Part shown: positions 26,018 through 27,155 of the stretch, one piece after another | How positions within the stretch are numbered: the first letter of the stretch is position 1 | Layout: every line of letters starts with the position of its first letter | Assembly: GCA_045638805.1 (NCBI GenBank) | Contig: JAZUBZ010000095.1 | Span: forward strand, 885 to 64,884 | Length of the DNA stretch: 64,000 bases | Source of the DNA: Eubacteriales bacterium | GTDB taxonomy: Bacteria > Bacillota > Clostridia > Oscillospirales > CAG-272 | Direction of reading: 5' to 3' | Position numbers and translations under genes: made by a program | Notes under the pieces: model-generated | Told to the model about the DNA's origin: nothing | Database searches by the model: none | What the model saw: only the letters and a program-made list of their open reading frames with translations

Positions 26018-26242
26018 TGTGTTGTTTTAACCGGTGAGAATGAATACAGCATTTGATCAAAAATTGATTTTGATTCCAAAGAAATAATACTCGTTAATGA
26101 AAATAATACGTAAGTCTGTATTTATGTAACTTAGTAGCATTTTGTGTATAAGTACTTCAAATGAGAATCTCTGTTTTACAACAGATGAGGTAAGAAATTT
26201 ACTCCTATCAGCTGTCATCCGAGCATTGCTATAATCAATCAT

Positions 26243-26881
26243 TTCCGCTATAGATCGTACTATTACGATGAAGAAATCGCAATGTACTATCTCCAGAGTA
26301 GATATTATGATGCGGTTGTCGGTAGGTTTGTTAATGCGGATGATTGTAATATAGTTATTTCAACATTCAATTCATATAATCATTCTTTCATCTTTTGCAA
26401 TAATGATGCCATCAACAACTATGATTTCTATGGCTTCATATCAATTAAAGCAATGGCAATGGTAACATGCGCAATTGCTGGAGCTGTGTATGCTGTATCC
26501 AAAGCATCACAATTGATTAACAAAAATTATTTCAAGAAGAATGGTCTTGTAGTTGATGGACTGACAATATATTTAGCAGCTTTTATTGCTGGCGGTATAG
26601 CGGGATTATTCGCTGGATCTAAGATTACTGGATATTTCAATTTGATAATGGGAGCCATTGGTGCTATTATTTCTGTCATTGTTTATTTAAAACTACATAA
26701 AAAAATGTTACATTCCAAAATAAAATCGAGTGATGTATTGTGGGTAGCCATCAAAGGTTTTTATACTGCATCAATTGGAGTTAGTAGTAAATCATCAAAA
26801 AAATATGTAATACAGTGCGTCCTAAAAGCAGTGGGGTTGGGAGCATTGGTCGGTTTTTGTGATTTGTTTTTGTTTTTCTAA
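26243..26881 (+). CDS. orphan RHS C-terminal toxin tip with glycine-zipper membrane helices (no convincing own start)
   Basis: Frame open from 26189. It reads FRYRSYYYDEEIAMYYLQSRYYDAVVGRFVNAD (RHS core end), then FCNNDAINNYDFYG (pre-toxin linker), then hydrophobic helices containing AIAGAVYA, GGIAGLFAG and GAIGAI. The listed ATG at 26282 lacks an RBS. Confidence 0.75.
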   Translation, partial: FRYRSYYYDEEIAMYYLQSRYYDAVVGRFVNADDCNIVISTFNSYNHSFIFCNNDAINNYDFYGFISIKAMAMVTCAIAGAVYAVSKASQLINKNYFKKNGLVVDGLTIYLAAFIAGGIAGLFAGSKITGYFNLIMGAIGAIISVIVYLKLHKKMLHSKIKSSDVLWVAIKGFYTASIGVSSKSSKKYVIQCVLKAVGLGALVGFCDLFLFF

Positions 26882-26900
26882 TGTTAAATAAGAGGTCATT

Positions 26901-27155
26901 ATGAAATTAGCTTTTTTAATTGTAACGAGTATACTTCTATCTGTAACTGAGTTTATGATGCTTTGTATAGTTCCGAAAAAAACTGACAAAATTGTTTTTA
27001 GCATTATTGCACTCATAGTATTTTTTGTTGTTATTTATATACATCCTCAATTTATTCATAGTTTAGGTGTATTATGGGATTTACAAGTTCAATCAAAGGT
27101 TATTCTAGGAATTAGTTACGGATTAACTCTAATTGCTTCTGTTATATATAAATAA
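26901..27155 (+). CDS. 84-aa three-TM protein, candidate immunity protein for the preceding toxin tip
   Basis: Starts 19 nt after the toxin-tip stop. AAGAGG RBS 6 nt upstream. Three hydrophobic helices. Confidence 0.6.
   Translation: MKLAFLIVTSILLSVTEFMMLCIVPKKTDKIVFSIIALIVFFVVIYIHPQFIHSLGVLWDLQVQSKVILGISYGLTLIASVIYK

Follow-up and report, generated by a model that had tools for sequence, protein, structure and literature searches.

A candidate membrane-active RHS tip and its three-transmembrane partner in an orphan cassette of a Clostridia-like chromosome

The RHS membrane toxin studied in detail in the literature we found is Tse5 (RhsP1, PA2684), a Gram-negative effector of the H1 type VI secretion system (T6SS) of Pseudomonas aeruginosa. 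Its 149-aa Rhs tip, Tse5-CT, forms pores and depolarises cells, and this effect is reversed by Tsi5, a membrane protein with two transmembrane (TM) helices (PMC9637101, PMC10684867). Here, we describe a locus within 64,000 nucleotides of a Eubacteriales bacterium genome (contig JAZUBZ010000095.1, positions 885 to 64,884; this whole stretch is referred to as the window, and all coordinates are window positions). At 26189-27155, the end of an RHS core runs in frame into a 148-aa variable domain (together termed tip 1) and is followed by a gene for an 84-aa three-TM protein (termed imm1). This segment is very probably an orphan RHS toxin-immunity cassette. By analogy with the systems compared below, channel formation or another form of membrane depolarisation is a reasonably probable mechanism for the domain. 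The parts of the cassette are as follows.

26189-26881, + strand: orphan RHS tip 1; 230-aa translation comprising the end of the RHS core, a linker and the variable domain
26189-26341, + strand: conserved RHS-associated core fragment of tip 1 (…FRYRSYYYDEEIAMYYLQSRYYDAVVGRFVNAD), identified by TIGR03696, tblastn and alignment to the cores of homologues
26278-26341 and again 27232-27295, + strand: 64-nt core-coding direct repeat, 84% identity (repeat search)
26342-26434, + strand: family-specific linker and end of the C-terminal plug (DCNIVISTFNSYNHSFIFCNNDAINNYDFYG), ending in YDFYG; conserved only among carriers of the toxin domain
26435-26881, + strand: 148-aa putative toxin domain and stop codon; all-helical prediction, charge +13, four hydrophobic segments
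26543-26695, + strand: central hydrophobic helical hairpin (H2 and H3) with A49xxxG53xxxG57xxxG61, a GSKITG turn and G66/G73/G76
26890-26895, + strand: Shine-Dalgarno (SD) sequence AAGAGG of imm1, 5 nt before its ATG
26901-27155, + strand: imm1, 84-aa three-TM putative immunity protein, identified by hydropathy, alignments and conserved synteny

The resemblance to Tse5/Tsi5 is close in layout. In both cases an RHS tip of almost identical length (149 versus 148 aa) follows an aspartyl-protease plug, is predicted to contain transmembrane and amphipathic helices, lacks an enzymatic motif, and is encoded immediately upstream of a small membrane immunity protein. The two systems differ in that Tsi5 has two predicted TM helices whereas imm1 has three, and in that Tse5 is a PAAR-like, VgrG-dependent T6SS effector while the window comes from a Bacillota genome without a T6SS; no T6SS, PAAR or VgrG genes were present among the window open reading frames (ORFs) scanned. 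The cleavage motif is canonical in Tse5 (DPxG) and degenerate in tip 1 (YDFYG). The activity of Tse5 was shown experimentally, whereas the window domain is known from its sequence alone. When the A4 domain profile was compared with all PDB chains, nothing better than E 0.39 was returned, with the Tse5 entries 8cp6 and 9i9y listed as a 1121-aa shell chain; the PDB profile matches themselves, the best of which (E 0.39) were to antibody light chains, were rejected as chance.

A second point of comparison is provided by TspA/TsaI, TelE/TipE and EsxX/ExiCD of the type VIIb secretion system, which share with the window a Bacillota host, a C-terminal hydrophobic domain and a (G/A/S)xxxGxxxG zipper (PMC12744356). 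The immunity proteins of channel-forming effectors are almost always polytopic membrane proteins, and glycine zippers are needed for the toxicity of TelE and EsxX (PMC12744356). In systems of this type polytopic membrane immunity proteins face an extracellular toxin, and the immunity genes also occur as orphans in non-producers, as was found for imm1. These toxins are LXG-borne and exported by the type VII secretion system, however, while the window domain is RHS-borne, and no LXG, WXG or EssC genes were found in the window. TsaI, ExiC and ExiD are also larger, multi-spanning proteins (six TM helices in ExiC and ExiD) as compared to the three-TM imm1, and no soluble cytoplasmic antidote of the ExiAB kind is encoded in the window.

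The third group consists of the ionophore toxins of contact-dependent growth inhibition (CDI), which form five-helix bundles with a glycine zipper and are paired with a membrane-embedded CdiI (PMC11630599). In the CdiA-CT EC93 family, approximately five helices are predicted to span the membrane and one of them carries a putative glycine zipper (PMC11630599); low-confidence models of the window domain contain five to six helices. As with the window domain, databases held no name for this toxin domain before it was described. Its cognate immunity protein is small and strongly hydrophobic and diverges fast, in which imm1 resembles it. Delivery is where the two part: CDI ionophores travel on CdiA/CdiB in Proteobacteria, are demarcated by VENN and possess a receptor-specific entry domain, whereas the window has an RHS carrier, no VENN and no separate entry domain.

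Judged from its sequence, the window domain is a new and very rare family that is not assignable to the Tse5, LXG glycine-zipper or CDI ionophore families. It is not filed under any of them because no homology was detected in the Pfam and PDB comparisons and because T6SS, LXG and VENN features are absent. Apart from the shell, which is missing because tip 1 is an orphan, the cassette has the features that define an RHS C-terminal toxin-immunity module. By analogy, the cassette may be regarded as a functional Gram-positive, RHS-borne counterpart of Tse5/Tsi5 and as an RHS-borne counterpart of the LXG glycine-zipper toxins.

The orphan tip and its variable domain

The tip 1 reading frame follows a TGA at 26186-26188, is open from 26189 and ends with a TAA at 26879-26881. 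Its first ATG, at 26282, yields the 199-aa ORF present in the NCBI annotation, and no SD motif was found in the 25 nt upstream of this codon. RHS homology begins at ∼26210, as determined by tblastn against a 908-aa RHS fragment from locus L002 (E 7e-17), and residues 15-82 of the 230-aa translation score 42.6 bits (E 6.6e-11) against TIGR03696 (Rhs_assc_core), above its curated cutoff of 32.5 bits. The last ∼50 residues of the RHS-associated core are retained, and the first ∼80 residues of the translation read ...INHFRYRSYYYDEEIAMYYLQSRYYDAVVGRFVNADD...NNDAINNYDFYG. No YD repeats that would form a repeat shell in the same ORF were found upstream; the sequence there contains stop codons instead. 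None of the ORFs in the 64-kb window, the longest of which is at most 816 aa, encodes an RHS protein. Given the upstream stops, the missing YD-repeat shell and the lack of a window RHS ORF, tip 1 is a true orphan fragment of an RHS/YD-repeat polymorphic toxin and not a complete RHS toxin. A scan of 24900-28900 for promoter and terminator consensus sequences returned 20 promoter-like matches as compared to 19.9 expected from shuffled sequence, which is the level of chance.

The junction between core and tip in RHS proteins carries an aspartyl autoprotease motif of the form DPxG-X18-19-DPxG(L) (PMC10684867). At the tip 1 junction both aspartates are retained (NAD-D ... Y-D-FYG), both prolines and the first glycine are gone, and the spacing is ∼24 residues. 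In alignments, the ∼30-residue linker that follows GRFxNxD co-varies with the toxin domain and not with the core, and its sequence differs in both the second orphan tip of the window (tip 2) and the second RHS protein of L002. The 64-nt direct repeat common to tips 1 and 2 stops exactly at the NAD codons of ...GRFVNAD. Because the linker co-varies with the toxin domain, the exchangeable module was taken to begin right after ...NAD, the point at which the intra-window DNA repeat ends. Judged by its sequence, the repeat is a likely substrate for homologous recombination.

The 148 residues that follow YDFYG (26435-26878) consist of 10% Gly, 12% Ala and 11% Lys, have a net charge of +13, and contain four hydrophobic segments centred at residues 92, 131, 158 and 218 of the 230-aa translation (Kyte-Doolittle scale). 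AlphaFold2 models, from which secondary structure alone was used, are entirely helical with five to six helices. H2 (residues 37-59 of the domain) and H3 (residues 63-87) are the most hydrophobic of these, with mean Kyte-Doolittle values of 1.84 and 1.54, respectively. Both have a low hydrophobic moment, are connected by a turn of three to five residues (AGSK/ITG), and are bordered on either side by Lys-rich loops, while H1, H4 and the first part of H5 have lower hydrophobicity or are amphipathic.

Conservation across the family is concentrated in this hairpin. The invariant or near-invariant positions of the domain are I28, N29, G42, A49, F50, G53, G57, L58, (G61, S62, K63), T65, G66, G73, G76, V81, Y84 and G108. 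Within the AxxxGxxxGxxxG zipper on H2, two residues (G53 and G57) are invariant and the other two (A49 and G61) nearly invariant; the GSKxTG turn is near-invariant, and H3 presents a conserved GxxxxxxGxxG face. The GxxxGxxxG motif is meaningful because it is conserved across the family and not because it is present in one sequence. Aside from N29, T65 and Y84, the invariant residues are nearly all Gly, Ala or hydrophobic, and the family alignment contains no conserved His/Cys/Asp/Glu/Ser catalytic set. Tip 1 keeps every family-invariant residue over its intact 230 codons. Comparison of diverged homologues gave proportions of nonsynonymous differences (pN) of 0.17-0.25 and of synonymous differences (pS) of 0.67-0.74, corresponding to a dN/dS of ∼0.11-0.12 with dS saturated; because pN is far below pS, the domain has evolved under long-term purifying constraint at the protein level.

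These features also bear on how the domain would act. A toxin that is targeted to the membrane without forming a pore could inhibit or hijack an integral membrane protein or lipid carrier, such as a transporter or the lipid II cycle, with the three-TM protein competing for or sequestering it. The evidence for a membrane toxin-immunity pair does not by itself separate target inhibition from channel formation, and specific membrane proteins are needed for the entry of CDI ionophores (PMC11630599). In the P0007 subfamily, acidic residues are conserved within H2 and H3; they could be a binding site and not a pore lining, and their positions are also compatible with a polar lumen. Against target inhibition, the conserved core of the domain is a glycine zipper in a hydrophobic hairpin, a hallmark of oligomerising channel formers (PMC12744356). 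This small domain also has a strong positive charge and, outside the GSKxTG turn, lacks a conserved polar surface patch. We therefore consider target inhibition unlikely and prefer channel formation.

The domain is rare. No Pfam, NCBIfam or PDB sequence matches to it were obtained; the Pfam and NCBIfam scans covered the toxin and immunity proteins singly as well as every family member. An exhaustive HMMER profile search of 1.84 billion protein cluster representatives identified five relatives. Ten clusters, several of which are fragments, were recovered when 5.8 billion clusters (90% identity) were searched with a profile. Pattern scans for the toxin domain in GTDB genome contigs and JGI metagenome contigs gave no confirmed relative. 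Sub-threshold Pfam and NCBIfam matches (MerF, TMEM18, HsmA, DUF417, Cyt_bd_oxida_II, Rhomboid) were inconsistent among members and were set aside as noise of hydrophobic composition, and the glycine zipper 2TM domain PF05433 was matched by one of six members only, at E 4.9 and below the gathering score.

Every homologue for which upstream sequence was recovered follows an RHS core. Two loci (L031 and L032) have ORFs that are truncated by the contig start but unbroken over the remaining 544 and 533 codons, respectively; each combines PF05593 RHS repeats with the core, this linker and the homologous domain. L002, from a metagenome-assembled genome (MAG) in NCBI, has the same layout with one disruption in the repeat region, and L003 and L004-L011 carry orphan tips, as in the window. 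No homologues were found on LXG, CdiA or non-toxin scaffolds; the carriers are all RHS. The closest RHS cores in reference genomes belong to Eubacteriales, Oscillospiraceae and Acutalibacteraceae MAGs.

The original prediction, made from the window sequence without database searches, had described an orphan RHS tip at these coordinates, with hydrophobic helices carrying small-xxx-small motifs and with a domain that could not be assigned to a named family. The RHS assignment holds, with TIGR03696 above its cutoff and no shell upstream. All three quoted motifs (AIAGAVYA, GGIAGLFAG and GAIGAI) are found in the tip 1 sequence along with the four hydrophobic segments, and the lack of a family match was confirmed for Pfam, NCBIfam and PDB. 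Structure prediction, proposed there as a check, bore out helical secondary structure throughout but gave no confident tertiary fold. The proposed search for tips on full-length RHS, LXG or CdiA proteins recovered the long RHS ORFs of L031 and L032 (at least 533 aa) and none on LXG or CdiA. The domain did not turn out to be an ordinary membrane anchor of non-toxin proteins, its few relatives all lying in an RHS context.

The partner gene imm1

The imm1 gene begins 19 nt past the toxin stop codon and encodes three hydrophobic segments. In each of the 12 toxin loci, the toxin is followed after 2-21 nt by a homologous ORF for an 84-96-aa three-TM protein, and an SD-like motif is present at the equivalent place in all homologous loci. 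The small proteins share 16-38% identity as compared to 32-69% for the toxins, and thus the partner evolves faster. Pairwise identities of toxin and partner are correlated (r = 0.80 over 15 pairs that are not phylogenetically independent). Conserved in the imm1 family are a basic, K-rich loop between TM1 and TM2 and, in the loop between TM2 and TM3, the motif LGxxW(D/N/S)(M/L)(E/Q), which is predicted by the positive-inside rule to face outward.

The same synteny argues against the view that the pair is no toxin-immunity system and consists of two small housekeeping membrane proteins that adjoin an RHS core fragment by chance. What speaks for that view is that both proteins are without family annotation and that JGI labels one homologue (P0002, locus L001) as the uncharacterized membrane protein YkgB. 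The label is unsupported, since DUF417 was matched at E 0.079 in one of six members, and because the L001 contig begins at the very junction of core and tip, the RHS context of P0002 is not visible in it. The domain lies in frame with the RHS core and is fused to a core in every homologue with upstream sequence, neither profile search recovered it as a free-standing family, and its pairing with the small protein is kept in 12 of 12 toxin loci. The housekeeping-protein reading is very improbable and is already largely refuted.

A profile search with imm1 returned 31 clusters, including copies without a toxin. Copies with 88-89% amino acid identity to imm1 are present in L026 and in L027-L029, and their nucleotide homology to the window (92-93%) starts at 26874 or 26891, immediately beyond the toxin coding sequence. 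A third toxin-less copy in L030 brings the number of toxin-less genomic contexts to three. In L027-L029 (L027:3461-3891), the copy immediately follows a Na/Ca-exchanger gene, and a different orphan RHS tip comes next. The copy in L026 (L026:7400-7946, an NCBI MAG) is preceded by a terminator-like hairpin and a near-consensus TTGACA-17-TATACT, and on this sequence it looks like an independently expressed orphan immunity gene. The toxin-less copies in L026 and L027 occupy unrelated chromosomal contexts.

Orphan immunity genes are recognised in polymorphic-toxin systems and have been used to support immunity annotation (PMC10327511, PMC12744356). By analogy with these systems, the three-TM protein most likely protects its owner from the cognate toxin. 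The gene for a tiny polytopic membrane protein that was noted after the tip is real, with its 84-aa ORF, three hydrophobic segments and AAGAGG SD sequence, and its earlier interpretation as an immunity gene gains support from the synteny, the co-divergence of the pair and the toxin-less orphan copies.

The array and how the cassette would be used

The cassette lies in an islet (∼25.0-28.5 kb) with 32-36% GC as compared to 42-49% in the flanks. The neighbours of the islet are ordinary Firmicute chromosomal genes (ClpC, McsB, FtsH, TilS, RecG, a Firmicute-type FBPase, ABC exporters and BspA-type leucine-rich repeat (LRR) lipoproteins). A tRNA scan found no tRNA integration site in the window, and no plasmid or phage match was obtained by tblastn of the domain against plasmid and phage collections or by megablast of the islet against plasmids. 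The cassette is promoter-less and shell-less and resides in a low-GC islet of a Bacillota (Clostridia-like) chromosome. Three further features of the islet complete the array.

25279-25472, + strand: decayed remnant of an RHS shell 3' end, found by tblastn with the 908-aa L002 fragment; three frames
27176-27823, + strand: orphan RHS tip 2 (TIGR03696 E 1.3e-11) with a different, Trp/Tyr-rich C-terminal domain that has no family match
27879-28421, + strand: 180-aa lipoprotein-like ORF, a candidate immunity protein for tip 2, with an N-terminal hydrophobic segment ending ...NIVSC

The tblastn segments of the remnant (25279-25350, 25358-25396 and 25422-25472) are each in a different frame. Their translation, ...LVPLYDTENNVCGIIYNNVP / ...NLRGDVIAIV... 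/ YTYDAWGVP, corresponds to ...LVPLYDNEDGVCGILYNNVPYYFIKNLQGDIIAIV...YSYDAWGV in L031, and this suggests that a main rhs gene was once located at the remnant site and then decayed.

Orphan rhs-CT/rhsI and cdiA-CT/cdiI modules of Enterobacteriaceae consist of a short stretch of core, a variable tip and an immunity gene, displaced downstream of the main genes. The window resembles them in that the orphans are arranged in tandem (tip 2 at 27176-27823) and share core DNA (64 nt, 84%). Unlike those arrays, however, it lacks a main rhs gene for at least 25 kb upstream. Because the array stands beside a decayed shell remnant and without an upstream main rhs gene, it looks like the residue of main-gene loss.

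This raises the question of whether the toxin part is still in use. The cassette could be a fossil, with a toxin part that is never reused and an expressed three-TM gene that serves solely as orphan immunity against toxin-deploying neighbours. Consistent with this are the missing SD sequence before the ATG at 26282, the missing upstream shell, the decayed RHS remnant nearby, the absence of rhs from 64 kb, promoter-like matches at chance (20 versus 19.9 expected) and the retention of the immunity gene without toxin in other genomes. The toxin ORF is intact over 230 codons with all invariant residues, however, unlike the frame-shifted remnant at 25279-25472, and the negative result for rhs covers the 64-kb window, which leaves room for a full-length partner elsewhere in the genome. 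A fossil state is quite improbable on this balance; it also concerns current use and not identity, and is compatible with the cassette being a toxin-immunity pair.

Several observations weigh against a membrane-depolarising toxin and its immunity protein. Toxicity and depolarisation rest on analogy, and no sequence similarity to a characterised membrane toxin was detected (Pfam for each member, PDB profile). The AlphaFold2 fold is not confident, with mean predicted local distance difference test scores of 52.5 (two-sequence alignment) and 47.1 (nine-sequence alignment), and GxxxGxxxG arises in 10.8% of composition-preserving shuffles, so that its occurrence in one sequence alone does not exceed chance. 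The cleavage motif departs from DPxGL, being YDFYG in tip 1 and GEYLG in one subfamily, and the aspartate motifs are ∼24 residues apart as compared to 18-19. The dN/dS between imm1 and the toxin-less copies is 0.56-0.70, calculated from only four to six synonymous differences, too few for the ratio to be informative. As for delivery, the 64-kb window contains no full-length rhs gene and no secretion system, and in the related full-length RHS proteins L014 (1711 aa) and L015 (2027 aa) only RHS repeats were detected by Pfam, with no signal peptide, LXG or PAAR recognised.

If the cassette does encode a channel-forming toxin, it could be used as follows. At this locus the toxin part would be silent, lacking a shell, an SD sequence and any promoter signal that exceeds chance, and imm1 is probably the only part of the cassette that is expressed here. 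Activation would occur via homologous recombination with a full-length rhs gene elsewhere in the genome, through ∼130 nt of core-coding DNA (∼26210-26341). After fusion, the RHS shell would surround the tip, and the aspartyl autoprotease of the core would release it by cutting after ...YDFYG. On the target cell, the cationic domain would bind the anionic cytoplasmic membrane and the H2-GSKITG-H3 hydrophobic hairpin would insert into it. The AxxxGxxxGxxxG zipper would then oligomerise the domain into an ion-conducting channel, and the membrane potential would be dissipated. In the producer, the three-TM protein would reside in the membrane and block the insertion or assembly of the cognate toxin.

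Neighbouring features and wider meaning

A 142-aa ORF (25589-26017) lies between the remnant and tip 1 and may be a leftover immunity gene of a lost tip; its product begins with two TM helices and continues as a soluble tail. For the 180-aa ORF at 27879-28421, no family match was found in Pfam or NCBIfam. Because this immunity candidate is extracytoplasmic, the toxin of tip 2 is suggested to target the cell envelope. An inverted repeat at 27202-27240, ∼50 nt past the imm1 stop codon, has 16-bp arms that are 94% complementary, a 7-nt loop and no T-run, and ends on the ATG of tip 2 (27236); it could form a transcript-end hairpin or one that occludes the start codon. Upstream of the islet, on the - strand at 21498-24252, two adjacent BspA-type LRR lipoproteins of 541 and 334 aa have near-identical signal peptides and N-terminal ∼90 residues, and their sequences point to a recent paralogous duplication.

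Additional features were noted in the homologous arrays. The 908-aa RHS fragment of L002 (L002:2700-6266), encoded in the same array as the homologous tip, has a different, strongly hydrophobic C-terminal domain and is followed by a 276-aa polytopic membrane protein; this pair may belong to another membrane-toxin/immunity family of these Clostridia RHS systems, one unrelated to that of tip 1. A large serine recombinase (Resolvase + Recombinase + Zn_ribbon_recom) adjoins the tip arrays at L004:8329-9903, in L005-L008, and at L030:9208-10725 and L032:4828-6378, and in L004-L009 no more than ∼100 nt separate the end of this gene from the start of the orphan tip.

In Bacillota of the gut, RHS proteins are abundant but characterised toxic tips very few. 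Polymorphic toxins whose membrane-active tips are paired with membrane immunity proteins are already known, and what is new here is the family and the host group and not the principle; the finding is plausible and useful to the specialist without being surprising. With a 148-aa toxin and an 84-aa immunity protein, the pair is compact enough for studying how a hydrophobic channel former would be carried in an RHS shell, how it would insert in a Gram-positive setting and how three helices would block it. Because close toxin-less copies of the immunity gene exist, the toxin may be in natural use and its immunity under selection. The chances are about even that the domain founds an undescribed, gut-Clostridia-specific family of RHS channels or ionophores. 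Such a family would include the first membrane-depolarising RHS tip of Gram-positive bacteria, one that would act from outside on the exposed cytoplasmic membrane and would be countered by a minimal three-TM immunity protein that circulates alone in non-producers.

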